Shown here one piece after another: positions 5,257 to 57,216 of a DNA stretch of 64,000 bases. The notes beneath the pieces are model-generated. The model was not told the DNA's origin and did no database searches. It was given only the letters and a program-made list of their open reading frames with translations. The first letter of the stretch is position 1. Every line of letters starts with the position of its first letter. Made by a program: the position numbers and the translations under genes. Source of the DNA: a virus (Duplodnaviria > Heunggongvirae > Uroviricota > Caudoviricetes); IMG/VR virus record IMGVR_UViG_3300029935_000001, positions 201,867-265,866 of that record; one strand, given 5' to 3'.

Positions 5257-5747
5257 GGATAGCTTGGATTGTAGGGCAAAGCGATCAGAATTACGATGTT
5301 GCTGCCCTCAAGGCAATCGGTCCTCTCTGGGGCACTTGGCAGTCGTGGCGGAAGTTTAAAACTGATAACGTAGTAGTAACAGACTTTAGCAAAGCAGTTG
5401 ACTTAACTGGCCGTGCCTTTCATAGTGTTTGTAACTTGTATCTCCCCGAAGACTTGTATCAAGCTGCTCAACGGCCAGCTGGCGTGCGCTTGTTTGCGCG
5501 TCCTGCAGGCGCTGGCGATTTAGCTGCATTAATGGGAGTAGTAGCAACTGTGGCCGACATTGTTCTTATTATTGGGTTGAGGCCGGGCTCACCTAACGAA
5601 GAACGTGAAGTGAAGTCAATTGTGCTAGCACACCCTAATATTCAATGGGTGAGCCTCGATGCCACTGAACCTTTTTTTGGTGGCAATGCTCCGCCAAACT
5701 GCCTAGTAGACACCACTGCTAATGTCTTGGCGATGCTTTCTGGTTGA
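5253..5747 (+). CDS. hypothetical protein
   Basis: The ATG overlaps the upstream stop (aaATGa); the gene's stop TGA lies inside the -35 TTGACT of the next promoter. Confidence 0.45.
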   Translation: MRIAWIVGQSDQNYDVAALKAIGPLWGTWQSWRKFKTDNVVVTDFSKAVDLTGRAFHSVCNLYLPEDLYQAAQRPAGVRLFARPAGAGDLAALMGVVATVADIVLIIGLRPGSPNEEREVKSIVLAHPNIQWVSLDATEPFFGGNAPPNCLVDTTANVLAMLSG

Positions 5748-5803
5748 CTAGCTGCTGCTACGGCGTTATAATAGCTACATACATTACTACTGCGGAGAAC
5801 ACA
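5744..5803 (+). promoter_or_regulatory. sigma70-type promoter (TTGACT-17-TATAAT) plus conserved leader variant
   Basis: -35 at 5744-5749, -10 at 5767-5772; leader agctacatacattactactgcggagaacacaATG. Confidence 0.6.
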
Positions 5804-6202
5804 ATGACTGCGCTCAACGAAACCGATCTTGTCACAGTTGTCGACCAAAGCTTGGGTTTCTTGCAGGCCCTTGCTGAGGTGTATGGCTCCGAGCGCGCAC
5901 AAGAAGCGTGGGCTAAGATAAGCGAGGCCCTCGGGCACGACGTTAGAGACGCAGTGTTCTTAGCTATGCTCGCCGGCGATAACGGTTCGGCTCGTGTGAC
6001 CTTCAAAATCACAAACCAAATCGTTAGCCATCGAGTGGCTGCTATTCGAGCGATTCGCGAGGCTGCATCGCTGGGCCTTAAAGAGGCCAAAGATCTTACG
6101 GATGCGGCAATGATGCGCGCCACTGTTGTGACGTGTAAAAATCGCCAATCAGCAAAAGGCCTGCGGCAAGCGTTGCGAGATCTTGGCATGGAGGCACAGT
6201 GA
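5804..6202 (+). CDS. protein with a ribosomal protein bL12 (L7/L12) C-terminal-domain-like region
   Basis: The C-terminal 70 aa read RVTFKITNQIVSHRVAAIRAIREAASLGLKEAKDL..., closely matching the bL12 CTD (EFDVIL...KIAVIKAVRxxTGLGLKEAKDL...); the N-terminal half is unrelated. Confidence 0.55.
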   Translation: MTALNETDLVTVVDQSLGFLQALAEVYGSERAQEAWAKISEALGHDVRDAVFLAMLAGDNGSARVTFKITNQIVSHRVAAIRAIREAASLGLKEAKDLTDAAMMRATVVTCKNRQSAKGLRQALRDLGMEAQ

Positions 6203-6590: not shown

Positions 6591-6705
6591 TTGTTTAAAA
6601 CGCTAAAAACTGCAAAGTGCGTGCTTACCAGCAAAGTGTCGAGACTTTTGCTGTAAATGTGCTCGATCAGAAATTACATAAACTGTGCTTAAAAAGGAAG
6701 CAATA

Positions 6706-7119
6706 ATGCCCTGGATCACTAATGTGCCGCTGCGCTGGATCGCCGAAGGTCACTACCCTAACCCGGGCTCAAACAGTATGCTGATCCAAATCGTGGACCC
6801 GGCGATGGAGTTTCCTGTACCAGCGACGCCGTTTCGGGAGATTCATCAGTTTGAGTTTCTCGACCTCGAGGACTCCGACGACTTTGCTGAAGAGTTCAAG
6901 ATCACAGACGAGCAGGCTGCCGAGCTGGTCGCGCTCCTGCAGCACGCGCTCAACCAAGGCATGAACGTTATTGTCCACTGTGTCGCTGGAGTGTGTCGCA
7001 GCGGGGCAGTATGCGAGGTTGGCGTGATGATGGGGTTTGATGATGCTGGCGCGTACCGGGCTCCTAACCTCATGGTCAAACGTCTCATGATGAGGTGTCT
7101 TGGCTGGACCTACGATTAG
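6706..7119 (+). CDS. Cys-based protein phosphatase (dual-specificity/tyrosine phosphatase fold)
   Basis: CX5R P-loop VHCVAGVCRSGAV; SD AAAAAGGAAG upstream. Confidence 0.65.
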   Translation: MPWITNVPLRWIAEGHYPNPGSNSMLIQIVDPAMEFPVPATPFREIHQFEFLDLEDSDDFAEEFKITDEQAAELVALLQHALNQGMNVIVHCVAGVCRSGAVCEVGVMMGFDDAGAYRAPNLMVKRLMMRCLGWTYD

Positions 7120-9395: not shown

Positions 9396-10388
9396 GTGAT
9401 ACCAACAAGAGCGCAATACTTTTTTACTGAGCGTGGATTTTTTAGAAAAAACGTCCTCAAAGAAGAAAAGTTCAGTCAACGCTATCCAGCTGTTTATGCA
9501 GAAATTAACAAAATTACTTCAACCTCGTTGCCGTGGCGAGAACGAGTGTATCTATATATACATGATGCACAAGAACCCCCACTCTGCCACTGCGGATGCG
9601 GAGAGCGGTGTGCTTTTTCGAACTGCCAAGACTCGAGTCGATTTACATATTTAAAGTTTTATTCAACTAAGTGCAAAGCTCGTGCTTATGGCGGTGTTGG
9701 AAATCCGTTTTTTGGTAAAAATCACTCAGATGAGACAAAAGAAGCAATCAGAGTTAAAAAGCAGGGCAAAACATATTCGCCCGAAGTAAACGCTAAAAAA
9801 GTGCGTCGCGGTGCTCAAAACGGAATGTACCAGCGTTGTAACTATGACGTTTGGCTCGAAAAATACGGCCCAGAAATTGCTTTACAAAAGCAGTTAGCAG
9901 CAAACGCTAAAAAAGTGCGTCGCGGTGCTCAAAACGGAATGTATGGTAAGTCGCCATCAAAAAAAGCTGGCAATTCTGTTAAGTGTTGGTACAAAGGTTA
10001 CTTTTGCCGCAGTTTATCCGAGCTAAGTTTTATAATAAACTACTGCGAGCGATTTAGGTTATTGTTTGAAACTGCCGAAACTACAAAATACAAAGTTGTT
10101 ATAGGTCCTAATAAAACGTACAGACCGGATTTTTTAGTAAACAACAAATTTATTGTTGAGATCAAACCAAAAGGGCTACAGAAGGCCCATGCTGACAAGT
10201 TTAGCATAGCCAAAGCAGAGTTTCTAAAGCAAGGGCTAACGTTTAAAGTCATTGACCCTATTAAAAAACTAAGTTATAATGACATTTTTGCGCTAATGCA
10301 AACGGGTGCCGTAGAAATAATGGCTGCTACGCATAGCAAAACTTATAACAACTTTATGAAAAGGTATCAAAAATGGGCAAAGCGGTAA
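9396..10388 (+). CDS. free-standing homing endonuclease (Zn-finger + NUMOD3 repeats + C-terminal PD-(D/E)xK-like nuclease)
   Basis: GTG start after AGGAGAG; CHCGCG zinc motif; NUMOD3-like GKNHSDETKEAIRVKKQGK; duplicated AKKVRRGAQNGMY module; C-terminal RPDF...VEIKPK motif; inserted between the pnk remnant and the intact pnk. Confidence 0.7.
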   Translation: MIPTRAQYFFTERGFFRKNVLKEEKFSQRYPAVYAEINKITSTSLPWRERVYLYIHDAQEPPLCHCGCGERCAFSNCQDSSRFTYLKFYSTKCKARAYGGVGNPFFGKNHSDETKEAIRVKKQGKTYSPEVNAKKVRRGAQNGMYQRCNYDVWLEKYGPEIALQKQLAANAKKVRRGAQNGMYGKSPSKKAGNSVKCWYKGYFCRSLSELSFIINYCERFRLLFETAETTKYKVVIGPNKTYRPDFLVNNKFIVEIKPKGLQKAHADKFSIAKAEFLKQGLTFKVIDPIKKLSYNDIFALMQTGAVEIMAATHSKTYNNFMKRYQKWAKR

Positions 10389-11281
10389 TCTGTGTCGGCG
10401 TTTCGGCTTCTGGAAAAAGCACCTGGGCGCGCAATTTCATCCACGACCGTACTACGAATGCCGGCGAGCAGTGGGTTGACATCAATCGCGACTGGGAACG
10501 GCGCTGTATTTTGGTCGAAAAGTCGCAAGGTCAGATTGACCGGCTCGTTTGGCGCCACTGGAAGTGGAAGTGGGAGGACGAAGTCACCCAACGTTGTGAA
10601 GCTCGTCTTGCCGAAGCGGCTGCTGCCCAGAAAAGTGTTGTGATCTCGGATACCAACCTGAATCGAGACCGCCGGACGGCTTTGAAGCACAAGCTCGAAG
10701 CACTTGGGTACGATGTTGAATACAAGTTTTTCTCGGTTACGTTCGAGGAAGCGTGCCGGCGCGATGCTGAACGCGAAAACGGTGTTGGTTACTCGGTGAT
10801 CGCTAAGCAGTTTGAGCAGTGGAATGCCGAGTTTCATGCTAAGCACATCCTGCAAGCTGGTTTGCCTGAATGCGTGATCGTTGACATCGACGGCACCATG
10901 GCTCACATGAAGGGGCGCGGCCCGTTTGATTGGGCGCGAGTGGGCGAAGATACAGTCGACCCGGTTGTGGATCGAATGGTCCAAGCCCTTCAAGACCAAG
11001 GATTTAAGATCGTTTTCCTGTCGGGGCGCGATGGCTGCTGCGAAGCTGAAACTCGCGAATGGCTCCGCAACAAGACCAGCGTCGGCGAGTTCGAGCTGTT
11101 TATGCGCACGGCAGGCGATTCGCGACGCGACGACATTGTCAAGCAAGAATTGCTTGCTGAGCATGTCGAAGGGCGTTACAATGTTTTTTGCGTGTTCGAC
11201 GATCGCCCCCAAATGATTCGCAAGTGGCATGCTATGGGTCTCAAGGTAATGGCTGTTAGCAACCCGTACCTCGAGTTTTAA
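10373..11281 (+). CDS. pnk: polynucleotide 5'-kinase/3'-phosphatase (T4 Pnk-like)
   Basis: N-terminal P-loop GVSASGKST; C-terminal HAD phosphatase motif VIVDIDGTM (DxDGT) plus downstream Asp residues; same domain order as T4 PseT. Confidence 0.8.
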   Translation: MGKAVICVGVSASGKSTWARNFIHDRTTNAGEQWVDINRDWERRCILVEKSQGQIDRLVWRHWKWKWEDEVTQRCEARLAEAAAAQKSVVISDTNLNRDRRTALKHKLEALGYDVEYKFFSVTFEEACRRDAERENGVGYSVIAKQFEQWNAEFHAKHILQAGLPECVIVDIDGTMAHMKGRGPFDWARVGEDTVDPVVDRMVQALQDQGFKIVFLSGRDGCCEAETREWLRNKTSVGEFELFMRTAGDSRRDDIVKQELLAEHVEGRYNVFCVFDDRPQMIRKWHAMGLKVMAVSNPYLEF

Positions 11282-12737: not shown

Positions 12738-13285
12738 AAGTTCAAACTGAAGAAAGTATTGTTAACCAACTCGCTGATCAAATCGCGCGACTAGAAACTC
12801 TTATTGCTGAGGCCAAGGCAGTTCTTGGCATTAAAGCAGACACTCAAACTGCTGATCTATCCAGCACTTCGCCCATCATTTACCGTCGGCTTCGCTTGCA
12901 GACTGAACAAGGCACCCCCGACAACCTCAACTGTATTACGTTTGCGTTCCGCATCAACTACGCTGCCAACGTATTGCAGGCGGGCTGGAGTATTGCTAAC
13001 AACGAAAACGTGGATCTCGAGCGTGGTCGTGCGTTGGCTGCTGAACGCCTTGACAAGGATCCACTTGAAGTAGAGTACAAGGCTGGTCGCAGCCTAGTCA
13101 ACAACGTATATGCTCACTTTTTTGGTGCGGGGCCGCTGGCTCACCTGCTTAACGGTTCGTTTAACAACAATCTATACAACGCGCTAAAGCGCAAGCTTCG
13201 CGGCATGCAGTCACAAAAAACTGTGCACATCGAAGACGCGTTCGAACAGGTAGTTCAAACTATGAATCGTAGAAAAAAAGGTTGA
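12734..13285 (+). CDS. hypothetical protein
   Basis: ATGA overlap with the previous gene; ends ...RRKKG-stop, with the TGA inside the next -35 box. Confidence 0.45.
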   Translation: MKVQTEESIVNQLADQIARLETLIAEAKAVLGIKADTQTADLSSTSPIIYRRLRLQTEQGTPDNLNCITFAFRINYAANVLQAGWSIANNENVDLERGRALAAERLDKDPLEVEYKAGRSLVNNVYAHFFGAGPLAHLLNGSFNNNLYNALKRKLRGMQSQKTVHIEDAFEQVVQTMNRRKKG

Positions 13286-13984: not shown

Positions 13985-15082
13985 ATGCGTAAGCTTGCTA
14001 CCATTCGTAAGATCGCCGAGATCAAGCCCATCGAGGGCGCCGACGCCATTGAACATTACCGCGTACTTGGGTGGTGGGTCGTTGACAAAAAAGGTGCCCA
14101 TCAAGTCGGCGACCTTGTCATTTACCTCGAGATCGATTCCTGGGCGCCCAATGAGCTGGCTCCGTTCCTGAGCAAGGGCAAAGAGCCGCGCGAATACAAC
14201 GGCGTTAAGGGCGAGCGCCTCAAAACTGTTAAGCTTCGCGGCGCTATCTCGCAAGGGCTGCTGCTGCCCGTTAAAACCGGAATCGGCGGCTACCCGTTTG
14301 TTGAGGGCTCCGCCGGCGAGCACACTGTTGTTCACGAAGGCGACGATGTCTCCGAACTGCTCGGCATTCAAAAATACGAGCCGCCCGTTCCGGCTCAGCT
14401 GCGCGGCAAGATTGCCGGCACGTTCCCGAGCTGGCTGCGAAAAACTGACCAGGAACGGATCCAATCTTGTTTTGCGGAGATTGAGCCTCTGCTCAGCGGC
14501 CTTTGGGTGATTGAAGAAAAGCTCGATGGGTCGTCTATGACTGTTGGCTACCGCAAGGGTGATTTTATCCTCGACAAGGATGGCCAGCCCATCCCTGAAG
14601 AAACTGTGGTTTGCTCGCGTAATCTGTCGCTCAAGCTCGACGATGACGCTAACTCGTTTGTGCGTGTGGCCCGAGAAACTGGCGTGCTTGACGCGCTGAA
14701 GGCGTATGGCCGTAACCTGGGCATTTCAGGCGAGCTGTGCGGCGAGGGCATCCAGGGTAACAAGTATAACCTCAAGGGCCAGCGCTGGTTTGTTTTCGAC
14801 ATTCTCGACGTTGATCGGGCCGAGTACGTTAGTTACGAAGAGCGCCAGCTGATCATCAATGATCTCGTTGCGCTCGGCGCCCAACTTGATCAAACTCCAC
14901 TGATTGCTGAGGGCGTTACGCTTGAGGGCATGACCGTCGACGGCTTGCTCCGAGCTGCTGAAGCGAAGAGTGCGCTGAATATTCAAGCCGAGCGTGAAGG
15001 ACTGGTATATAAGAGTGTTGAGCGGCCTGATGTGTCGTTCAAGGCTATTAGCAATCGGTGGTTGCTTAAAACTGGGGAATAA
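13985..15082 (+). CDS. ATP-dependent RNA ligase with N-terminal OB/tRNA-binding-like domain (Rnl5/DraRnl-like)
   Basis: N-terminal Myf/EMAP-like OB segment (RKIAEIKPIEGADAIEHYRVLGWWVV); nucleotidyltransferase motif I KLDGSS, motif IV EGLVYK, motif V FKAIS. Confidence 0.75.
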   Translation: MRKLATIRKIAEIKPIEGADAIEHYRVLGWWVVDKKGAHQVGDLVIYLEIDSWAPNELAPFLSKGKEPREYNGVKGERLKTVKLRGAISQGLLLPVKTGIGGYPFVEGSAGEHTVVHEGDDVSELLGIQKYEPPVPAQLRGKIAGTFPSWLRKTDQERIQSCFAEIEPLLSGLWVIEEKLDGSSMTVGYRKGDFILDKDGQPIPEETVVCSRNLSLKLDDDANSFVRVARETGVLDALKAYGRNLGISGELCGEGIQGNKYNLKGQRWFVFDILDVDRAEYVSYEERQLIINDLVALGAQLDQTPLIAEGVTLEGMTVDGLLRAAEAKSALNIQAEREGLVYKSVERPDVSFKAISNRWLLKTGE

Positions 15083-17128: not shown

Positions 17129-18115
17129 ATGCAGATTGGATTTTGTTGCAAGATGGTTATGCCGGCGGTGAAAAAAGGTTTTGAAAACATCGAATCCTGC
17201 AACTTCAAGACTACTACGGCTAAGTGGCTGCGCGAGCATCCGGGCTCGGCTCCTGAACGGCTTGATAGTATCTTGCGTCACAATTTGCAAGCAGTCAAGG
17301 ACCTAATCAGGCGGGTAGCTCAGCGGCCGCAAGTGGGACGCATGGTTCGCATTGGCTCGGATATTTTTCCACTCTTCACGCACCCTGACGCTCGGTGGTA
17401 TTGGTCAGACCCGCTAGTGCTCAAGTTTGCTGAGTCTCAACTAGCTATAGCGGGTGCTACTGCTCGCGCAAGCGGTGTTCGTTTGTCTATGCACCCGGGA
17501 CAGTTTGTTGTACTCGCGTCCGAATCAGAGAACGTCCGCGCTAACTCAGTCGAAGAGTTTGAGTACCACGCGTTAGTAGCTCGCATGATGGGCTACTGTG
17601 TCACCGATCACGATTTTAAGATTAACGTTCATTTATCGGGCAAAGGCGGCACAGCAGTGTTTCGTCAGACTTACGCTCAGCTCAGCCCCGAAGCACGTTC
17701 CTGCATTACCATTGAGAACGACGAGTTTCAAGCTGGGCTCGATCGAGTGCTTGAAATTGCTGATTTGTGCCCGATTGTGCTTGACCTACACCACCACTTT
17801 ATTCACTCCGGCGAGTACATCCAGCCCACCGATCCTCGCATTCAGCAAGTTATTGCGTCGTGGCGCGGCGTTCGACCAGTTATCCACTACTCGCAGTCTG
17901 GTGAGCAGTATCTTGCTCACTTCCCTAACACCTTGCCTACTCATGCCGAGCTACTCCAAGTTGCTCCGCGCAGCAAGCTTCGCGCACACTCGGACTTTTA
18001 CACCCACACTCAAACAAACGCCTGGGCGCTGCAACACTTAGAGTGGGCAGACATCCAGGCAGAATGTAAAGCCAAAAACTTAGGTGCCGACCAGCTTATT
18101 GCTGCTTTGTCTTAG
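17129..18115 (+). CDS. UV-damage endonuclease (UvdE/UVDE family, TIM barrel)
   Basis: MQIGFCCK start (compare M-R-L-G-Y-x-C); ITIENDE (compare LENDD); IVLDLHHH triple-His; 328 aa, typical length. Confidence 0.6.
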   Translation: MQIGFCCKMVMPAVKKGFENIESCNFKTTTAKWLREHPGSAPERLDSILRHNLQAVKDLIRRVAQRPQVGRMVRIGSDIFPLFTHPDARWYWSDPLVLKFAESQLAIAGATARASGVRLSMHPGQFVVLASESENVRANSVEEFEYHALVARMMGYCVTDHDFKINVHLSGKGGTAVFRQTYAQLSPEARSCITIENDEFQAGLDRVLEIADLCPIVLDLHHHFIHSGEYIQPTDPRIQQVIASWRGVRPVIHYSQSGEQYLAHFPNTLPTHAELLQVAPRSKLRAHSDFYTHTQTNAWALQHLEWADIQAECKAKNLGADQLIAALS

Positions 18116-25321: not shown

Positions 25322-25918
25322 ATGACCACCCTTATCCCCATCGTTGTTGAACAAACTGCCCGCGGCGAACGCTCCTACGACATCTTTAGTCGTATGCTCA
25401 AGGACCGTATTGTTTTCCTCAACGGCCCTGTTCGCACTGAGATGTCGCATTTGATTGTAGCGCAGCTTCTTCTACTTGAAGCCGAAGATCCTGAGCGAGA
25501 CATTGTTATGTACATTAACTCGCCAGGCGGCGAAGTCACTGCAGGCCTGGCAATCCTTGACACTATGCGTTTCATCAAGCCTGACGTAGTTACGGTAGTA
25601 ATGGGGCAGGCGGCGTCAATGGGCTCACTGCTTGCATCCTCGGGCACTAAAGGAAAGCGCTATCTGCTGCCCAATGCGCGGCACCTCATCCACCAGCCAC
25701 TCGGCGGCGCCTCGGGCCAAGCCTCGGACATCGAGATCCATGCCAAGGAGATTATCCGCCTCAAGCGCGAGCTCACTGAAATTTACGTAGGCAACACAGG
25801 CAAGACATTTGAAACACTCGAGCGCGACATGGATCGTGACAACATTATGACGGCTGCTGAATCCGTGGCATATGGCCTCGCTGACAAAATCATTACTAAC
25901 CGACTTGACGGGCTATGA
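25322..25918 (+). CDS. clpP: ATP-dependent Clp protease proteolytic subunit ClpP
   Basis: 198 aa; [14 protein letters not shown]; active-site Ser in QAASMGS; His in LIHQP; canonical Ser-His-Asp triad spacing. Confidence 0.9.
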
Positions 25919-31552: not shown

Positions 31553-32467
31553 ATGAATTTCAAATCTGTACCTGCCGTAATCTTCGACTTTCCGCCCCTT
31601 GCGGCAATTCTCGTAACTCTCTCTACACTGTTTCTTGCTGCGTGCGGCGACCGAGTTGAAGTGCCCCCAGCACATGTAGCCAAGATCATGACCAAGGATG
31701 GCTACAAGGCCGACACCATCGGCACGTCAAAATTTCGTCTTGAATGGTGCTGGGCATACTGCGACAAGCTGGTTCTGCTTGACGCGTCTGACCAAGCAGT
31801 GTCTGAAAAGATGGAACTTTTCATGCCGCAAGACAAGTTGAACATGGCGTTTGACTTGCGTCTAACGCTAGTGGTCAATCCCGACAAGTACGAAGAACTT
31901 TTTGCGCGGGTGCCGCCAGTTGAACAAAACGGCATCGAGTACATTGCCTGGGCAAAAGCATATCAAACGTATGCGCAGCAAATCGTTCGAGCCGAGGCAC
32001 GTGAATTCCTGAGCGGTTTTACGATTGCTGAAATCGCCAGCTCGCGCGAAGCGATTAACGCACAGCTTAGCACACGACTGACTGAGAGCATCAACAAGCG
32101 CACCCCGTTCCAAGTACGGTACGTTGGGCTAGCTGACATTCAGTACCCAGCAATTATTGTCGAAGCGCAAGAAAATGCAGCGCAGCGACGTGAGCAGATC
32201 CAACAAGAAGAAGCGCAGCTCGAAATTAGCAAAGTGGCACTTGAGCGACAACTGCAAGAGCAACAACTTCAGCGCCGAATTGACGTTGAACGCGCTCAAG
32301 CAGAAGCAGAAGTTGCGCGCATTCAATCGCAATCGCTTACTCCGCAATACATGAAGTATCGCGAACTTCAGATCCTAGAGAAGCTCGCAACAAGCGACAA
32401 CAAGGTGTTTGTGCCTAGCACGATGCTAGATTCGATCGCCGGTCAAGTGCAACTTGGTCGTCAGTAA
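31553..32467 (+). CDS. SPFH/band-7 (stomatin/prohibitin/HflKC-like) lipoprotein
   Basis: Lipobox LAAC after the signal peptide; central SPFH-like region; long C-terminal coiled-coil Q/E/A/R heptads (EQIQQEEAQLEISKVALERQLQEQQLQRR...). Confidence 0.5.
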   Translation: MNFKSVPAVIFDFPPLAAILVTLSTLFLAACGDRVEVPPAHVAKIMTKDGYKADTIGTSKFRLEWCWAYCDKLVLLDASDQAVSEKMELFMPQDKLNMAFDLRLTLVVNPDKYEELFARVPPVEQNGIEYIAWAKAYQTYAQQIVRAEAREFLSGFTIAEIASSREAINAQLSTRLTESINKRTPFQVRYVGLADIQYPAIIVEAQENAAQRREQIQQEEAQLEISKVALERQLQEQQLQRRIDVERAQAEAEVARIQSQSLTPQYMKYRELQILEKLATSDNKVFVPSTMLDSIAGQVQLGRQ

Positions 32468-34794: not shown

Positions 34795-35124
34795 ATGAGC
34801 GACCAACCAGAACTATTCACACTCGACGACAGCAGCCAGGATTGGTGGCTTAACGGCGAACTACATCGCGATGATGGCCCTGCTGTAATCGATAGCGACG
34901 GAACCGAGTGGTGGTTCCGCAATGGGCGATTACATCGCGAAGACGGGCCTGCTGTAATTCGGACCGATGGTACCCAGGAGTGGTATCGCAACGGCCAACT
35001 ACATCGCGAAGATGGTCCTGCTGTTATCTATGCAAACGATGGCACCCAGGAGTGGTTTCTTGATGGCAACCGAGTAGACCCCATTGTTCACTTAATGCTG
35101 CGTTATGAGCAAGAAACAGGTTGA
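34795..35124 (+). CDS. MORN-variant repeat protein, paralog 1 (3.5 repeats)
   Basis: 23-aa repeats DGTxEWWxRNGxLHREDGPAVI; conserved tail VDPIVHLMLRYEQETG. Confidence 0.65.
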   Translation: MSDQPELFTLDDSSQDWWLNGELHRDDGPAVIDSDGTEWWFRNGRLHREDGPAVIRTDGTQEWYRNGQLHREDGPAVIYANDGTQEWFLDGNRVDPIVHLMLRYEQETG

Positions 35125-35178
35125 CCGTTGCGTTAATTCCGGTATAATATAAATATACAGATAATCCAGGAGTTTCGC
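35121..35178 (+). promoter_or_regulatory. promoter unit duplicated with the MORN genes
   Basis: cagGTTGACCgttgcgttaattccggTATAAT; the -35 overlaps the ...ETG-stop of the upstream gene. Confidence 0.6.
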
Positions 35179-35505
35179 ATGAACAACAAACCAACCCTAC
35201 AAAAACGCACAAACGGCACCCAGCAGTGGGTCCTCAATGGGCAACTACATCGCGAAGATGGGCCTGCTGTTATTCAAGCCGATGGTACCAGGATGTGGTA
35301 TCTTAATGGCCAGCGACATCGCGAAGATGGCCCTGCTGTGATCGATAGCGACGGAACCGAGTGGTGGTTCCGTAATGGCGAACTACATCGCGAAGATGGC
35401 CCTGCTGTTGTTCAAACAGACGGAACCAAAGAATGGTGGATCAACGGCGAAGAAGTAGACTTCGTGACTCACGCAGTGCTGCAACACAAAAATAAAAATC
35501 GTTGA
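35179..35505 (+). CDS. MORN-variant repeat protein, paralog 2
   Basis: Same repeat type; divergent tail VDFVTHAVLQHKNKNR. Confidence 0.65.
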   Translation: MNNKPTLQKRTNGTQQWVLNGQLHREDGPAVIQADGTRMWYLNGQRHREDGPAVIDSDGTEWWFRNGELHREDGPAVVQTDGTKEWWINGEEVDFVTHAVLQHKNKNR

Positions 35506-36086: not shown

Positions 36087-36482
36087 ATGAGCAGTAAGAC
36101 AGAAATGCGCGAATTCGCGGATGGCGGCCGGATGTGGCTACTTAATAGCCAACCACACCGCACGGACGGACCTGCTGTTATTCAAGCAGATGGAACCCAA
36201 AAGTGGTTCAGGAATGGCCGACTACATCGCGAAGACGGACCTGCTTTTATTCATGCAGATGGAACCCAAAAGTGGTATCGCAACGGCGATCTACATCGCG
36301 AAGATGGACCTGCTGTTACTTGGATTGATGGAACACAAGCCTGGTATCGAAATAGCCAACTACATCGCGCGGATGGACCTGCATATATTGATGCAAACGG
36401 CACCCAAATGTGGTACCTCAATGGCAAACGAGTAGATCCCATCACTCACTTAGTGCTGCGTTACGAGCAAGAAACAGGTTGA
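36087..36482 (+). CDS. MORN-variant repeat protein, paralog 4 (5 repeats)
   Basis: Same family; tail VDPITHLVLRYEQETG. Confidence 0.65.
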   Translation: MSSKTEMREFADGGRMWLLNSQPHRTDGPAVIQADGTQKWFRNGRLHREDGPAFIHADGTQKWYRNGDLHREDGPAVTWIDGTQAWYRNSQLHRADGPAYIDANGTQMWYLNGKRVDPITHLVLRYEQETG

Positions 36483-36524
36483 CCGTTGCGTTTAATTCTG
36501 GTATAATAGCATTGGGTATATGCC
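36479..36524 (+). promoter_or_regulatory. promoter TTGACC-17-TATAAT
   Basis: Nearly identical to the unit at 36848. Confidence 0.55.
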
Positions 36525-36851
36525 ATGAGCAACCGACTAAAACTACGTAAACTCGCTAATGGCACCCAGATGTGGGCCCTTGGCGGCCGACTACATCGCG
36601 AAGACGGGCCTGCTGTTATTCACGCCGACGGCGACCAGATGTGGTATCGCAATGGCCAACTACATCGAGAAGATGGGCCTGCAGTTGTCTACTCTGATGG
36701 ACAACAAGAGTGGTGGATCAACGGCCAACTACATCGCGAAGATGGACCTGCTGTTGTTTGGCCCAATGGCACCCGAATGTGGTGGCTTAATGGCAAACAT
36801 GTAGACCCCATCACTCACCTAATGCTGCGTTATGAGCAAGAAACAGGTTGA
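36525..36851 (+). CDS. MORN-variant repeat protein, paralog 5 (4 repeats)
   Basis: Same family; tail VDPITHLMLRYEQETG. Confidence 0.65.
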   Translation: MSNRLKLRKLANGTQMWALGGRLHREDGPAVIHADGDQMWYRNGQLHREDGPAVVYSDGQQEWWINGQLHREDGPAVVWPNGTRMWWLNGKHVDPITHLMLRYEQETG

Positions 36852-36909
36852 CCGTTGCGTTTAATTCTGGTATAATAACTACATACGGTAATTGAACGGA
36901 CAAAAAGAA
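36848..36909 (+). promoter_or_regulatory. promoter TTGACC-17-TATAAT plus leader variant (actacatacggtaattgAACGGAcaaaaagaaATG)
   Basis: -10 at 36871-36876. Confidence 0.6.
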
Positions 36910-37605
36910 ATGGCTCGCCAACAATACGCAAAACCTGCACCAGTAATGATTCCGGCTGAACGAGTGTGGGCGGCTATCGCTCTTGCTTGGCGTGTAGTTG
37001 GTAATCAATATCTCGCCGAACCTTTGGTGGTCTACGGCAACCAAGGCGAAGTGCTGTCGACCACACCGCCCAACAAAGTCCTGGTTCGCCAAATTCTAAC
37101 CAACGAATCAGAGTATCGAATCACTGCTGCCGACCAGGAAAAAGGCGCCGAGTTCCGGCAGCAAATCAATGCCCTGAGCTTTGCAGTGCTTATGGGCCGT
37201 CGGCTCAATAGCTTTCTCACCAACTTGGTTGAGCTTGCGCAAAAAGATGAAGTTGACCTCAACGACCGGTTCGCCGTTGGTGTGCTCTCATGTGCGCCCA
37301 AGACTGCTATCGCCGAGCATACGCGAGCAATGCAAGATCAGCGACTGGCGTTTGCCAATACCAAGCACCTTGGCAAAGTTGGCGAGCGCGTCAACATACA
37401 AGTTGAAGTGATTAAATCCGTCTACTCGCAGCAGTGGAACACTTATTACATCACTGCTATTTCCGAAACTGACCAAGCGGTCTGGTTTGCGTATCGCAAG
37501 CCAATTGAGCTTGGCACCAAGATCTCGATTGCTGGCACAGTCAAGCGGCTGGCTGACAACGGGCAAACCCAACTCAGTCGCGTGACTGTTAAATCCACCC
37601 TGTAA
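36910..37605 (+). CDS. hypothetical protein (231 aa)
   Basis: ATG at the canonical leader position; the track's 36892 start lies inside the leader. Confidence 0.5.
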   Translation: MARQQYAKPAPVMIPAERVWAAIALAWRVVGNQYLAEPLVVYGNQGEVLSTTPPNKVLVRQILTNESEYRITAADQEKGAEFRQQINALSFAVLMGRRLNSFLTNLVELAQKDEVDLNDRFAVGVLSCAPKTAIAEHTRAMQDQRLAFANTKHLGKVGERVNIQVEVIKSVYSQQWNTYYITAISETDQAVWFAYRKPIELGTKISIAGTVKRLADNGQTQLSRVTVKSTL

Positions 37606-37627
37606 TAATCCTCCAAAGGAGTAGTAT

Positions 37628-37954
37628 ATGAGTAAAGATCTATTTTCTGTTGCTGGCGTCGCACGCAACCCCGACGGCGAAATGAAGGTTCGCTTTGCAA
37701 ACGACATTGTGTCCAGGACCAAGATCCTCGTCAAGGCCAACTGCACTGATATTGACCTTAACGAGCTTCCGGCGCCAATGAGCAAGCTCGAAGCCCTCAA
37801 ATGGCTTAATGCCAACAAGAACTACGAAGGCGATGCTCAGTTTGTTGTTCAACTCAAGCTTCAAGAAAAGAACAAAGAAGCAAAGAAAGCTCAACTCAAG
37901 CTCAGCGGCATCGTCACGCACCTCAAAGAAAAGGAACCCGCTACTGAGGGGTAA
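37628..37954 (+). CDS. hypothetical protein with Lys-rich coiled-coil C-terminus
   Basis: Strong SD AAAGGAG. Confidence 0.5.
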   Translation: MSKDLFSVAGVARNPDGEMKVRFANDIVSRTKILVKANCTDIDLNELPAPMSKLEALKWLNANKNYEGDAQFVVQLKLQEKNKEAKKAQLKLSGIVTHLKEKEPATEG

Positions 37955-42184: not shown

Positions 42185-42589
42185 ATGACACAAGTAAATC
42201 TACACGCTTACCAAGATTTTGTTCAAGCAATCACCAGCGAGGACAGCAATGACCCTGAGGCGTTTGTTCGACGCATTCAAGCGCTCGTTGAGCAAGGAGT
42301 AAATCCGGCGCTGCTTAATACTGCAGCCATTGGTCTGCCTAGCGAAGCCGGTGAATTTTCGGACCTGGTGAAAAAAGTTTTGTTCCATCGCAAAGAACTT
42401 ACAGCCGAGGTTCGCAACAAACTCAACCAGGAACTTGGCGACGTGGCTTTCTATTGGATTACAGCATGCCGCGCACTTGGCTTAGACCCGAACCAAGTGA
42501 TTCAAGACAACATTCAAAAATTATCAAATCGATACCCTAACGGGTTTGATGTTTTTCGAGCTGAGAATAAAGACAAGCTAGGCATTTAG
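42185..42589 (+). CDS. mazG: MazG-like nucleoside triphosphate pyrophosphohydrolase
   Basis: All-alpha NTP-PPase motifs EAGEFSDLVKK and ELGDVAFYW. Confidence 0.65.
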   Translation: MTQVNLHAYQDFVQAITSEDSNDPEAFVRRIQALVEQGVNPALLNTAAIGLPSEAGEFSDLVKKVLFHRKELTAEVRNKLNQELGDVAFYWITACRALGLDPNQVIQDNIQKLSNRYPNGFDVFRAENKDKLGI

Positions 42590-47162: not shown

Positions 47163-47441
47163 ATGCGATACCTAATCATCCGTTATACCCGACAGCCATC
47201 GGGCGAATTCAAAGAGCAGGCCACTGTTGCTGAAACCCTCAAAAACCATGACTTACAAATGGCCGCAGTGATTTTGGACTATCGAGCCCAGGCGGTAGTA
47301 AAGGCGGTCATCGACGGCAAAACTTTGCCACGAGTATTCCAGCGCTTTCACACTTACTATCAAGAATTTTTCCCAGCGATCGTCGACCGCTTAGAAAAAG
47401 AAAACAAATCGGTTGTTGTACCGGAGCCTCCTGTGTTATAA
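47163..47441 (+). CDS. hypothetical protein (possible clamp-loader accessory subunit)
   Basis: ATG 3 nt after the stop of the clamp-loader gene; the gp44-gp62 analogy is based on position only. Confidence 0.4.
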   Translation: MRYLIIRYTRQPSGEFKEQATVAETLKNHDLQMAAVILDYRAQAVVKAVIDGKTLPRVFQRFHTYYQEFFPAIVDRLEKENKSVVVPEPPVL

Positions 47442-47448
47442 TCTATTC

Positions 47449-47835
47449 ATGATTGCTGCTATTATTGGTTCGCGCGGATTTAACAACTACGTCGGCCTCA
47501 GTCGCGTACTCTCGGAGTATCCGATCACTCGGATCGTGTCGGGCGGCGCCGTTGGGGCCGACACCTTAGGCGCTGAGTGGTCTGACGCGCAAGGCTTGCC
47601 TGAGCCGATTATCTTTCTCCCAGACTGGACCCGGTATGGTCGAGCGGCCGGCCCTATTCGCAACCAAGACATTGTTGACGCTGCAGATTTTGTGGTAGCA
47701 TTTTGGGACGGCAAATCCCGTGGCACACGGTCTGCGCTGCGTTACGCAAAAAAAGTAGGCAAGCCGGCTCACGTGTGGTTATACGATGCCGAGACCTTTG
47801 AAATTCTGCGCCTCCTCGATCCCGCCGAGCATTGA
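47449..47835 (+). CDS. SLOG-superfamily (DprA/Smf-like Rossmann) protein
   Basis: IVSGGAVGADTLGAEW matches the DprA/SLOG glycine-rich loop (VSGxAxGxD); about 128 aa. Confidence 0.5.
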   Translation: MIAAIIGSRGFNNYVGLSRVLSEYPITRIVSGGAVGADTLGAEWSDAQGLPEPIIFLPDWTRYGRAAGPIRNQDIVDAADFVVAFWDGKSRGTRSALRYAKKVGKPAHVWLYDAETFEILRLLDPAEH

Positions 47836-54905: not shown

Positions 54906-54982
54906 TGGATATTTTGTTACGAGTATCTTCGCAGGCTGGCTAATCACCGCGGTTATCGTAGCAGTGTATCAGCTCTCTTAGG

Positions 54983-55038
54983 TTGACCTTCGGCGCCTAT
55001 GTCCGTATAATAACAACATACGCTAACGGAGAGAAGCA
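54983..55038 (+). promoter_or_regulatory. conserved promoter-leader cassette (variant)
   Basis: taGGTTGACC-17-TATAAT-aacaacatacgctAACGGAGAGAAGCAATG. Confidence 0.65.
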
Positions 55039-55203
55039 ATGTCGAACGAATGGGTTGTGTATTTTGTAGAATACGGTCTCGACGGCGAGCAATGGGAATC
55101 TCACGTTGAATACTGCCCGACCGAGGCAGAAGCCGAAGTGGCGCGCGCCGAGTGGCAAGCAGCTGACCCCCACAACACGTATCTGGTTCGGGAGGCATTC
55201 TAA
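55039..55203 (+). CDS. small acidic protein (54 aa)
   Basis: Leader ATG; taATGc coupling into the next gene. Confidence 0.45.
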   Translation: MSNEWVVYFVEYGLDGEQWESHVEYCPTEAEAEVARAEWQAADPHNTYLVREAF

Positions 55204-55697
55204 TGCGCAAAGGCGAAATGCTCAGCCTGGCGATCCTAATCGCTACTCTTGCCCACGAAGGTCAGTTTGACAAGGGCGGCAAGCCCTACATTCTCCATTC
55301 GCTCACTGTCCTATACAAGCTCAACACCAACGACGAAGAGCTCCAGTGCGCTGCTGTGCTTCACGACGTCATTGAAGACTGCTCGGGCAAGCGCATCCAC
55401 TTCGCCGGTGAAGATCGAGTGATCAGCTTCGCGATGCTTGCAGACGCAGGCATGTCGACTCGAGTGATCGATATCGTGCGGCGCCTCACTAAGATGCCAG
55501 GCCAAACCTACGAAGAGTACCAAGCCGCAGTGCTCGGCGATGTTGGTGCTATGCTGGTCAAGCGCGAAGACCTGCGCACCAATAGCGATCTTCGCCGACT
55601 GAAGTCTCGCACAATTACTGAAAAAGACGTTGCCCGCGTCGCAAAGTACATGACATTTTACGCCTTGATTGAGGCCAAACTCGCAGAAAAAGGTTGA
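55203..55697 (+). CDS. small alarmone hydrolase (RelA/SpoT-type HD-domain (p)ppGpp pyrophosphohydrolase)
   Basis: LAHEGQFDKGGKPYILHSL...AAVLHDVIEDC matches the SpoT/Mesh1 HD motif (AHxGQxRxxGxPYIxHP...LHDxxED); 164 aa with no synthetase domain. Confidence 0.7.
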   Translation: MRKGEMLSLAILIATLAHEGQFDKGGKPYILHSLTVLYKLNTNDEELQCAAVLHDVIEDCSGKRIHFAGEDRVISFAMLADAGMSTRVIDIVRRLTKMPGQTYEEYQAAVLGDVGAMLVKREDLRTNSDLRRLKSRTITEKDVARVAKYMTFYALIEAKLAEKG

Positions 55698-55699
55698 CC
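55672..55699 (+). terminator. perfect 12-bp hairpin CGCAGAAAAAGG-ttga-CCTTTTTCTGCG at the end of the HD-hydrolase gene
   Basis: The stem embeds the GGTTGACC -35-like box in its loop; a copy of the 5' arm occurs in the promoter at 56773. Confidence 0.5.
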
Positions 55700-55776
55700 T
55701 TTTTCTGCGGAATCAGTGCCCTTACTAAGACAGAGTTTGCCTATAGGAGTCATAAATAAAAAAAAAAGGAAAACCT

Positions 55777-56187
55777 ATGCCAACTTCTTTATTATCGACT
55801 GGGATTCAATTCCCAGACAACACTATCCAAACTACAGCAGCGTCGGGGTCCGGTGGCGCAGCATTTGCGTGGGTCAATTTCAACGGCTCGACGGCCGGCA
55901 TCCGCGCAAGTTTAAACGTGTCGAGCATTACCCGACACGCTGCTGGACAATACACTATTAACTTTATTAATGCAGCAGTAGACAACAACTATGTTGTATG
56001 CGGTATTACTCGCCGAATCGGCTCTGGTTCGGCTACTGACATAAACGCTGGCTTATCGTTAGTGGGCGGCCAAGTCTCAACATGGCCGTATAATGCAGTT
56101 AAAACTACATCTGGTGTGCGAATTTTAGGTGGCACCCGCGACACTATACAAGATTCTGACATGTTTGATATTATTATTTTTCGATAA
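55777..56187 (+). CDS. hypothetical Gly/Ser/Thr-rich protein, possibly fibre/structural
   Basis: SD AAAGGAAAACC; low-complexity beta-rich composition. Confidence 0.45.
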   Translation: MPTSLLSTGIQFPDNTIQTTAASGSGGAAFAWVNFNGSTAGIRASLNVSSITRHAAGQYTINFINAAVDNNYVVCGITRRIGSGSATDINAGLSLVGGQVSTWPYNAVKTTSGVRILGGTRDTIQDSDMFDIIIFR

Positions 56188-56189
56188 CT

Positions 56190-56420
56190 ATGACTAATTT
56201 AGTAATTATATATTTACAAGATAACAACGTCCCGGCGGTGGTAATTCCAGCACCTGGGGCGCTGGAAGCCTTTGCAATCAACGACATCGCAAATAAAGAC
56301 GTACCGTTTGGTAAGAAGTACAAAATATTATCAATTGACGATCTCCCGCTGGATTCGCCGCAAGAATCCTGGACGGTCGACGAAGAAGATTTAACCGACG
56401 GCATAGGATCAAAACTGTGA
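56190..56420 (+). CDS. hypothetical protein
   Basis: ORF. Confidence 0.4.
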   Translation: MTNLVIIYLQDNNVPAVVIPAPGALEAFAINDIANKDVPFGKKYKILSIDDLPLDSPQESWTVDEEDLTDGIGSKL

Positions 56421-56626
56421 GCATAGTTAAAGTTAACCCAGAGATTAAAAGCAAACTTGCAAGACAACGCAGAATTGCAGAGTTACAAGAGTTGCTAAGG
56501 CAAACGGATTACGTTGCACTCTCAGATTATGACGGCTCTTGCGATGCGATTATTCAGCAACGCGCAGCCTGGCGCTCAGAAGTGAGGGCACTAAAGTCAG
56601 ATGCTGACCCGGATGTTATTAGGTAA
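56417..56626 (+). CDS. hypothetical protein
   Basis: GTGA coupling. Confidence 0.4.
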   Translation: MSIVKVNPEIKSKLARQRRIAELQELLRQTDYVALSDYDGSCDAIIQQRAAWRSEVRALKSDADPDVIR

Positions 56627-56791
56627 ACGCACCACTACAGCAGACAACAACAAAAATATATAATCGCGTTGATTGACTATATTTACGTTGCGCTCGCAGT
56701 GCGGTCAAATTGCAGACTATTAGTTTGCGGACTGGCATGCAGCTAGTCGCACACGGCGTTACCAGCATAAGACCAAACTCGCAGAAAAAGG

Positions 56792-56853
56792 TTGACCAGG
56801 TCGCGCCCGCGCTGTATAATAGCTACATACAGTAAACAAACGGAGTAAGAAAC
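56792..56853 (+). promoter_or_regulatory. conserved promoter-leader cassette
   Basis: aaaaaGGTTGACC-17-TATAAT-AGCTACATACAGTAAacAAACGGAGtAAGaAacATG. Confidence 0.7.
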
Positions 56854-57216
56854 ATGGCACGCGAAACCCGAGCACAACGTGAAGCCCGCCTTGCTGCCGA
56901 GCAAGAAGCAAACCGCCGCAAACACCAAGAGCACTACATGCCTCGCTTGCTGGCGCTGCTCGAATCCGCCTTCATTGAGGGATTTGCGCTGCGTGTTGAA
57001 GCCGGGCGCTTTGTGCTCTCCGAAAAGTTTAACAGTCACGGAACTTTCTCGTTTGCTGCAGAGTACAACGACGACGACTGGTTTGACATGGAACGCCTGT
57101 ACCAAGAAATCAACTATCGTAAACAGGAGCGCGAAGAACAAGCTCAACGGGCCGAAGCCAAGCGGGCTGCGCTGGCCAAGCTGACAGCCAATGAACGCGA
57201 CCTGCTGGGGCTTTAA
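56854..57216 (+). CDS. hypothetical Arg/Glu/Ala-rich helical protein
   Basis: Leader ATG. Confidence 0.5.
   Translation: MARETRAQREARLAAEQEANRRKHQEHYMPRLLALLESAFIEGFALRVEAGRFVLSEKFNSHGTFSFAAEYNDDDWFDMERLYQEINYRKQEREEQAQRAEAKRAALAKLTANERDLLGL

Follow-up and report, generated by a model that had tools for sequence, protein, structure and literature searches.

The 64,000-nucleotide stretch of DNA analysed here (the window) belongs to a Caudoviricetes virus (IMG/VR record IMGVR_UViG_3300029935_000001, positions 201,867 to 265,866) and carries on its + strand, at 55203..55697, a gene with an ATG start for a 164-residue protein related to the hydrolase domain of RelA and SpoT. The question that this locus raises is what a phage does with such an enzyme: whether it degrades (p)ppGpp and so blocks the stringent response of its host, as a first-pass annotation had proposed, or whether it acts on other products of alarmone synthetases. 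In the present study we propose that the gene encodes a stand-alone small alarmone hydrolase (SAH) of the Aph/PbcSpo type. The best explanation overall, which we consider reasonably probable, is that of an active metal-dependent 3'-pyrophosphohydrolase of the Aph type, produced early, acting on its own and directed against host defence.

Family and predicted nucleotide specificity of the hydrolase

The first annotation of the gene as phage-encoded is borne out by its surroundings and by its distribution. Fifty PHROG families match open reading frames (ORFs) of the window at E <= 1e-8, relatives were found on contigs from IMG/VR and from metagenomes that reach 375 kb in length (one close relative on a 340-kb contig), and homologues of the hydrolase occur in 265 cultured-phage records, with hosts including Aeromonas, Streptococcus, Klebsiella, Escherichia, Cronobacter and Salmonella. 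Homologues were also found in 359 IMG/VR contigs, these by two peptide patterns only, and 7,146 representatives of a clustered protein library match the hydrolase at E <= 1e-10. The ratio of non-synonymous to synonymous substitution rates, ~0.10-0.11 against three relatives ~80% identical in DNA, indicates purifying selection and therefore that the ORF is a functional gene. The motifs AHEGQFDKGGKPYILH and LHDVIED are both present in the 164-residue ORF, and the hydrolase fold spans the entire protein as a single domain, without synthetase, TGS or ACT domains. The description of the product as a SAH made of the RelA/SpoT HD domain only thus holds, with the His/HD/ED/Asp/Asn set intact and no second domain.

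Pfam returned for this ORF only HD_4 (24.8 bits against a cut-off of 27.2) and HD (20.4 against 22), both sub-threshold, and the only NCBIfam match, to spoT_relA, is also sub-threshold; PHROG 990, 'metal-dependent phosphohydrolase', matches at 4e-45. Since Pfam and NCBIfam were unable to give the subfamily, we used profile searches of the PDB and the published signature of the Aph family. In a single-sequence search against all PDB sequences the best match is Aph1 (adenosine 3'-pyrophosphohydrolase 1; 7SMG, 8.5e-16), the (p)ppApp-specific hydrolase of Bacteroides caccae, with the hydrolase domains of Rel, SpoT and RelA at 1e-5 to 1e-2. A family profile built from 29 homologues matches Aph1 at 6.4e-29, the best Rel at 2.1e-12, CgRelH at 1e-7 and MESH1 at 3e-5. 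Furthermore, a profile of the C-terminal 65 residues, which does not contain the HD motif, matches Aph1 7SMG alone in the PDB (4.2e-7), and no Rel, SpoT, Mesh1, RelH or PaSAH was retrieved with it from the PDB at E <= 10. The same criterion was used by Ahmad et al., who delimited the Aph family by a search with residues Y90-E143 of Aph1 (PMC10083569).

The predicted structure leads to the same family. In the AlphaFold2 model of the hydrolase the predicted local distance difference test (pLDDT) score is 95.5 and the predicted template-modelling score (pTM) is 0.90, and the four best Foldseek matches are all chains of 7SMG, with TM scores of 0.89-0.91 normalised to Aph1 and root-mean-square deviations of 1.4-2.8 Å. 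MESH1, RelH, PaSAH and Rel/SpoT HD domains follow, the top 40 matches being without exception RelA/SpoT homologue (RSH) hydrolases, RelA included, while generic HD proteins such as YpgQ are non-significant (E ~0.2 or above). The protein is accordingly of the RSH type and not a generic HD phosphohydrolase.

Residue conservation was analysed over 189 homologues, 120 from the protein search and 69 from IMG/VR loci. Among the catalytic and metal-binding residues, all 189 have H32, H54, E58, D59, D123 and N127, and only one homologue departs at D55 (kept in 188), so that both the HD dyad and the ED motif (E58-D59) pass the alignment check of the metal ligands suggested with the first-pass annotation. 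H32, H54-D55 and D123 are the counterparts of H53, H77-D78 and D144 of RelSeq and align with the HD motif of Aph1 and Rel, E58-D59 corresponds to the catalytic ED motif, and N127 is the ribose-contacting Asn, equivalent to N114 of Aph1 and N150 of TtRel.

The residues that distinguish the Aph family are largely kept as well. In the HMMER alignments D24 of Aph1 corresponds to D23 of the query (in GQFDKGG), and D116 and R119 correspond to D129 and R132 (both in NSDLRRL), each of the three being conserved in 188/189 homologues; K133 corresponds to K148 (184/189) and Y134 to Y149 (189/189). Each of the six Aph1 residues named lands on the correct letter, which confirms the residue numbering. Five of the six signature residues are therefore kept, among them the equivalents of D24 and R119, the two that set the (p)ppApp specificity of Aph1 (PMC10083569). 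Wild-type Aph1 has no detectable ppGpp hydrolysis, and the D24R and R119A changes are both needed for ppGpp cleavage; among twelve tested Aph homologues all hydrolyse ppApp, whereas only two act on ppGpp, modestly or weakly, and ten not at all (PMC10083569). The tested members of the branch cleave the 3'-diphosphate of adenosine alarmones, converting pppApp to ATP and ppApp to ADP (PMC10083569). At the position of D23 an Arg is found in every aligned (p)ppGpp hydrolase (S. aureus Rel, B. subtilis Rel, SpoT and CgRelH); it corresponds to the guanine-stacking R43 of TtRel, the R in 'GQxRKSG' (PMC10083569). The guanine-contacting residues R43/R44/S45 of TtRel ('RxSG' after GQ) are not kept in the query, which has D23-K24-G25, to be compared with D24-K25-A26 in Aph1.

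These residues bear directly on the proposal that the protein is a (p)ppGpp-specific hydrolase, which would lower (p)ppGpp so that the stringent response cannot shut down phage production. The domain is a bona fide RSH hydrolase with all catalytic residues present, Pfam and NCBIfam show similarity to SpoT/RelA-type HD domains only, the source annotations of some homologues read '(p)ppGpp synthase/HD superfamily hydrolase', and a build-up of alarmones in the course of phage infection has been considered in earlier work (PMC7229694). Such names are automatic transfers and not tests, however, and we regard a (p)ppGpp-specific enzyme as very unlikely, given the exchange of the guanine-binding Arg for Asp at D23, the near-invariance of D129, R132, K148 and Y149, the behaviour of wild-type Aph1 described above, and a profile E-value for Aph1 that is ~17 orders of magnitude better than that of any (p)ppGpp hydrolase. 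A different 3'-phosphate or 3'-pyrophosphate substrate, for example a defence signalling nucleotide or a cofactor, would find a parallel in MESH1, whose structures with NADPH and 3'-phosphoadenosine 5'-phosphosulfate (PAPS) are among the structural neighbours, and RSH hydrolases are chemically versatile. The MESH1 match is nevertheless much weaker than that of Aph1, and the signature is tied experimentally to adenosine 3'-pyrophosphates; we consider this alternative extremely improbable. By sequence, predicted structure and signature residues, the protein belongs to the Aph (Aph1-like, 'PbcSpo') branch of the RSH-type hydrolases, its enzyme activity being predicted.

Early expression and the proposed role in counter-defence

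The phage homologue on which the proposed role leans is gp220 of Salmonella phage PVP-SE1. The two proteins share 45% identity across 93% of the query, and gp220 carries the same set of signature residues. A SAH of PVP-SE1, assigned to PbcSpo, neutralised in E. coli all five of the toxic small alarmone synthetases (toxSAS) tested, CapRel, PhRel, PhRel2, FaRel2 and FaRel, and the authors put forward the idea that phages entering a cell evade alarmone-based defence by means of hydrolases of their own (Jimmy et al. 2020, PMC7229694). The removal of the 3'-pyrophosphate from tRNA has been reported for the SAHs tested, ATfaRel, which is a PbcSpo member, and human MESH1 (10.1101/2021.04.30.441581); in later work the same tRNA detoxification was described for PaSpo, the SAH of Salmonella phage SSU5. 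As tRNA ends with an adenosine at its 3' terminus, a 3'-pyrophosphohydrolase selective for adenine would in our view be chemically suited to both (p)ppApp and 3'-pyrophosphorylated tRNA.

The hydrolase is the second gene of a bicistron placed under a predicted early promoter. This sigma-70-type promoter (54981..55011, + strand) starts with a GGTTGACC box, and contains a -35 element TTGACC at 54983-54988, a 17-nt spacer and a -10 element TATAAT at 55006-55011, with 11/12 consensus matches in the promoter scan; it is conserved in the relatives L002, L003 and L006, and the leader ACATACGCTAACGGAG directly after it is conserved too. The first gene (55039..55203, + strand) encodes a 54-residue protein to which no function was assigned, with no match in Pfam or NCBIfam and no tblastn match among the phage records. 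In the sequence TAATG its stop codon (TAA) and the start codon of the hydrolase (ATG) overlap, a sign that the two may be translationally coupled, and the pair is called in relatives L002-L008 and L010. The small ORF was considered as an obligatory partner and rejected in this role, as it is missing upstream of the hydrolase in the closest relative, L009.

Aph1 has as its native role immunity to the MuF-fused (p)ppApp synthetase toxin Apk2 (PMC10083569), and as this is the closest characterised relative, the phage protein might likewise protect the infected cell or a lysogen from a (p)ppApp synthetase toxin of the phage itself. We looked for such a toxin with the expression E-[VILMF]-Q-[VILMF]-[RK]-T, a weak test that divergent toxSAS could escape: no RSH synthetase motif was found in the six frames of the window, nor within ±4 kb of the gene in 80 IMG/VR loci. 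Clustering of the neighbours over the same 80 loci revealed no conserved partner, the best cluster covering 12/80. With neither a synthetase motif nor a shared neighbour, the hydrolase is therefore taken to be stand-alone, unlike Aph1 with its immunity function and ATfaRel, which is an antitoxin. Furthermore, RelA_SpoT and MuF are absent from the best 25 of the 46 Pfam families that match the 148 ORFs of the window, the region resembles an early-gene block of a lytic jumbo phage, and most Aph homologues were described by Ahmad et al. as having no toxin context (PMC10083569). Self-immunity is for these reasons a most improbable function.

Several observations weigh against a strictly adenine-specific enzyme of the Aph type or loosen its connection with the tested phage protein. 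The sixth signature residue, R96 of Aph1, has no conserved counterpart: it aligns at A108/A109, in a variable stretch without a conserved Arg, although it is also the only member of the signature to lie away from the active site of Aph1 (PMC10083569). Directly after the catalytic ED motif the query carries a 12-residue insert, GKRIHFAGEDRV (55384-55422, residues ~62-73), predicted to form a β-hairpin of strands 64-67 and 70-73, which is present in 92/189 homologues including the query and absent from Aph1 and PVP-SE1 gp220. We infer that gp220 is the SAH tested by Jimmy et al. from its being the sole SAH locus in the PVP-SE1 genome, even at E <= 10. Finally, ATfaRel, also a PbcSpo member, was reported to degrade both ppGpp and ppApp (PMC7229694), and membership of the subfamily would therefore by itself allow (p)ppGpp activity.

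A promiscuous hydrolase, able to weaken the stringent response as well as to clear the products of toxSAS, draws on these same points: ATfaRel shares its subfamily with the PVP-SE1 SAH, two of the twelve tested Aph homologues have modest ppGpp activity, and the insert beside the ED motif, together with the missing equivalent of R96, could loosen specificity. The equivalents of D24 and R119 are however present and near-invariant, and the other ten tested homologues are without ppGpp activity, so that we hold promiscuity to be unlikely, if less so than a (p)ppGpp-specific enzyme.

Counter-defence by an Aph-type hydrolase is in our opinion the more likely function when set against blockade of the stringent response, and (p)ppGpp hydrolysis is disfavoured. 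The latter had been the functional claim of the first-pass annotation, and it is not sustained: an Asp, D23, stands in place of the guanine-contacting Arg, the Aph signature is there, and the nearest tested phage homologue neutralises toxSAS. Adenine specificity, activity on 3'-pyrophosphorylated tRNA and the counter-defence role itself are what we infer from published homologues. In the proposed mechanism the enzyme would be made at once after infection, from a strong early promoter of the host (sigma-70) type. It would take the 3'-pyrophosphate off (p)ppApp made by host toxins of the FaRel or Tas1/Apk type, and plausibly also off A76 of tRNA, where it may have been put by toxSAS of the CapRel/PhRel/FaRel2 type. 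As a result ATP pools and translation would be kept running during infection.

The early promoters and the hairpin at the 3' end of the gene

The GGTTGACC box that opens the promoter of the hydrolase operon is repeated throughout the window: it occurs 15 times, where 1.4 copies would be expected, and in 14 cases it is on the + strand. About twelve of these 14 read GGTTGACC-N15/16-GTATAATA with an A-rich tract upstream, and the leader and ribosome-binding site that follow are conserved as well (...ACATAC..AACG.AACGGAG.., that is ACATAC..AACGCAACGGAGCAAG). In complete promoters the box starts at 13280, 21419, 30386, 35119, 36477, 36846, 48852, 49419, 52504, 54981, 56790 and 63245 (+ strand), whereas no -10 element accompanies the boxes at 39252 (inside an ORF of 924 residues), 55692 and 15953 (- strand). 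Judged from this arrangement, the box is the extended -35 element of the predicted early sigma-70-type promoters of the phage.

The box at 55692-55699 lies in a perfect hairpin (55682..55709) of 12 Watson-Crick pairs, formed by a 5' arm CGCAGAAAAAGG (55682-55693), a TTGA loop (55694-55697) and a 3' arm CCTTTTTCTGCG (55698-55709). The 5' arm consists of the last four codons of the hydrolase gene, whose TGA stop (55695-55697) is inside the loop, and the box covers the loop and the two closing pairs on each side. The 81-nt hairpin region has a z-score of -3.3, with 0/200 shuffles folding as well, and a strong stem is found at this box only, the other 13 boxes of the + strand having no strong hairpin. 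Of what had first been said about this element, the perfect 12-bp stem with the box across its loop and closing pairs is real; the end of the transcript that was assigned to it was not borne out, as the bases after the stem, GAAUCAGUG, form no U-tract and a terminator scan makes no call at the hairpin.

The origin of the stem becomes apparent on comparison with the relatives. In L002, L003, L005, L006 and L010 the box at the 3' end of the hydrolase gene belongs to a complete promoter for the directly following gene (MARETR...), and the cassette that separates the two in the window (55700..56769, + strand) is absent. This cassette carries three small ORFs on the + strand, at 55777-56187 (136 residues), 56190-56420 (76 residues) and 56417-56626 (69 residues), amounts to 1,098 bp with one repeat copy (55700-56797), and has a G+C content of 44-46% against 53-56% in the flanks. 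It is bordered by a 28-nt direct repeat. The left copy, AGGCCAAACTCGCAGAAAAAGGTTGACC (55672..55699, + strand), holds the last part of the hydrolase gene together with a -35 box left orphaned, without a -10 element at 16-18 nt, and the right copy (56770-56797, + strand), identical at 27/28 positions, is part of a complete promoter (56770..56820, + strand; -35 at 56792-56797 and -10 at 56815-56820) that would drive the MARETR... gene (56854-57216). The 3' arm of the hairpin is composed of the CC of the box and the first 10 nt of the inserted cassette, and is absent from the relatives; these 10 nt are an inverted copy of the A-rich upstream tract of the promoter. In the closest relative, L009 (90% protein identity), a different gene (MEVQAHGFVFENL..., L009:800-1278) is fused at nearly the same nucleotide, after CTCGCAGAAA. 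The 1,098-bp insert here and the different gene at nearly the same point in L009 therefore mark the site as a hotspot of cassette exchange. In the reading that these sequences support, the hairpin is the left junction of a cassette inserted into, or recombined at, the promoter after the gene, which would thereby have orphaned the box. The exact hairpin 26-mer has zero matches in the viral and metagenome contig collections, and no donor of the cassette was identified in them.

The same stem could be read as a functional intrinsic terminator, or as a terminator-promoter cassette resembling the promoter-early stem-loops (PeSLs) of T4-type phages (Arbiol et al. 2010; Comeau et al. 2014; PMC2839356, PMC4122927), ending the transcript of the hydrolase. 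It is stable and perfect, its position coincides exactly with the ORF end, a sigma-70 promoter was not found ahead of the next ORFs, and PeSLs of T4-type phages both end transcription and mediate insertions and deletions (PMC2839356, PMC4122927). Against termination count the missing U-tract, the close relatives that lack the hairpin and use the same box as the -35 element of a complete promoter, and the fact that only 1/15 boxes forms such a stem; efficient termination would furthermore leave the three cassette ORFs without a detectable promoter. The hairpin was thus rejected as a terminator, for want of a U-tract and of conservation, and we rate this function as unlikely. Classification as a full PeSL was rejected too, the other promoters having no stem-loops. 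What the two systems have in common is the repetition of strong sigma-70-type early promoters, the A-rich upstream tracts and the short patches of homology for gain and loss of ORFan cassettes between close relatives. In the present case, however, the stem-loop lies across the -35 box and not upstream of it, is confined to a single box out of 15 and lacks G/C tracts; PeSLs also belong to T4-type phages, whereas the present phage is not known to be T4-like.

Two further observations concern the cassettes of this region. The 136-residue ORF of the inserted cassette starts with a tail-fibre-like segment, STGIQFPDNTIQTTA..., and its residues 32-100 show weak similarity (E 7e-7 to 8e-4) to proteins annotated as tail or tail-fibre components in phages that are unrelated, which is odd within a block of early promoters; no sigma-70 promoter lies ahead of it, and CATAAATA followed by an A10 run is found just upstream. 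Elsewhere in the window the boxes at 35119, 36477 and 36846 share ~40 nt of upstream sequence and precede paralogous 108-residue ORFs (units 35119-35505, 36477-36851 and ~36846-37954), of which those at 35179-35505 and 36525-36851 are 61% identical and built of NGxLHREDGPAV-type repeats. These three paralogous promoter/ORF units point to a putative tandem duplication of a cassette.

Genomic setting and comparison with known systems

The window contains ~148 small ORFs in a one-strand block that covers 90.6% of the + strand. A megablast search of the 3-kb neighbourhood against 50,697 phage records gave no match, and the 924-residue ORF has only weak matches, to the Agrobacterium and Sinorhizobium jumbo phages Atu_ph07 and Phosso. 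The window represents the early or auxiliary part of a jumbo-phage genome to which no cultured phage is closely related.

Among its genes are those for ClpX (533-1741), Hsp20 (2024-2521), a ClpS-like adaptor (2580-2882) and ClpP (25322-25918; CLP_protease, 8e-80), together with a protein with a ribosomal L7/L12 C-terminal domain (5744-6202), and matches to IF-1 (eIF-1a family, 1e-21), ribosomal protein S21 (2e-17) and histone-like Hc1 (3e-12) were obtained among the 148 ORFs. A dual-specificity or polymorphic-toxin-type phosphatase domain is encoded at 6685-7119, a UvdE UV-endonuclease at 17129-18115, an SPFH/Band 7 protein at 31553-32467 and a YAcAr/SLOG-family protein at 47413-47835; clamp-loader genes were also identified. 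A gene for a MazG-like nucleotide pyrophosphohydrolase (42185-42589; Pfam 6e-9, PHROG 229 2e-33) is situated 13 kb upstream of the hydrolase, and MazG-like enzymes are sometimes proposed to act on alarmones.

A putative homing endonuclease of the NUMOD3/TnsA-like type (9396-10388) lies ahead of a polynucleotide kinase-phosphatase (PNKP; 10373-11281, HAD_PNKP 9e-45), and an RNA ligase follows at 13985-15082 (PHA02142 OB domain and RNA_ligase). PNKP and RNA ligase suggest a T4-like tRNA-repair pair and, with the hydrolase, the presence of several functions against tRNA damage in one phage. One may go further and suppose that the insert-bearing clade is specialised for the 3'-pyrophosphorylated tRNA produced by abortive-infection toxins of the CapRel/PhRel/FaRel2 type, and so joins PNKP and RNA ligase in a tRNA-repair toolkit, and, separately, that the palindrome at the stop codon, in the promoter, is an active recombination site by which jumbo phages not known to be T4-like capture cassettes. 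Both suppositions taken jointly are quite unlikely to hold, somewhat more so than promiscuity of the hydrolase.

Stand-alone alarmone hydrolases are common in phages, and the names given to them are mostly '(p)ppGpp hydrolase' or 'metal-dependent phosphohydrolase'. The Aph signature supports a re-reading of the whole phage clade, as factors of counter-defence against toxSAS and Tas1/Apk rather than suppressors of the stringent response. Counter-defence was already suggested by Jimmy et al. 2020, and Ahmad et al. 2023 worked out how enzymes of this family act; with Kurata 2021 these studies cover what is described here, and the present analysis refines an annotation without adding a new system. 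What is new resides in the insert after the ED motif and in the palindrome at the promoter junction, the protein itself being moderately divergent. The orphaned promoter with its hairpin junction would be a small, clean case of promoter-mediated cassette exchange in the early region of a jumbo phage.

Compared with the known systems, the phage protein stands closest to Aph1 of Bacteroides caccae (7SMG), which is also a compact single-domain RSH hydrolase with an identical catalytic set, although the query is only ~28% identical, has no equivalent of R96 and possesses the extra 12-residue β-hairpin insert. Aph1 moreover adjoins its MuF-fused (p)ppApp synthetase toxin in a temperate phage, while the query is stand-alone, within an early-gene block of a large phage of lytic type. 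With PVP-SE1 gp220 it shares the condition of a stand-alone SAH of a lytic phage, and differs in that gp220 is without the insert and sits after a thymidylate-kinase gene. ATfaRel, the type IV antitoxin SAH of Cellulomonas marina, and PaSpo render toxSAS harmless through hydrolysis of what these toxins make, the 3'-pyrophosphate at the CCA end of tRNA among it; ATfaRel is, however, operon-linked to its toxin and is reported to cleave ppGpp too, and PaSpo belongs to another SAH subfamily. The HD domains of SpoT and Rel and the metazoan Mesh1 have the same fold and the same His/HD/ED/Asp/Asn machinery as the query, but are far more distant (1e-12 to 1e-3), with an Arg at the D23 position, no equivalents of D129 and R132 and extra helices, and their substrate is (p)ppGpp, to which Mesh1 adds NADPH.

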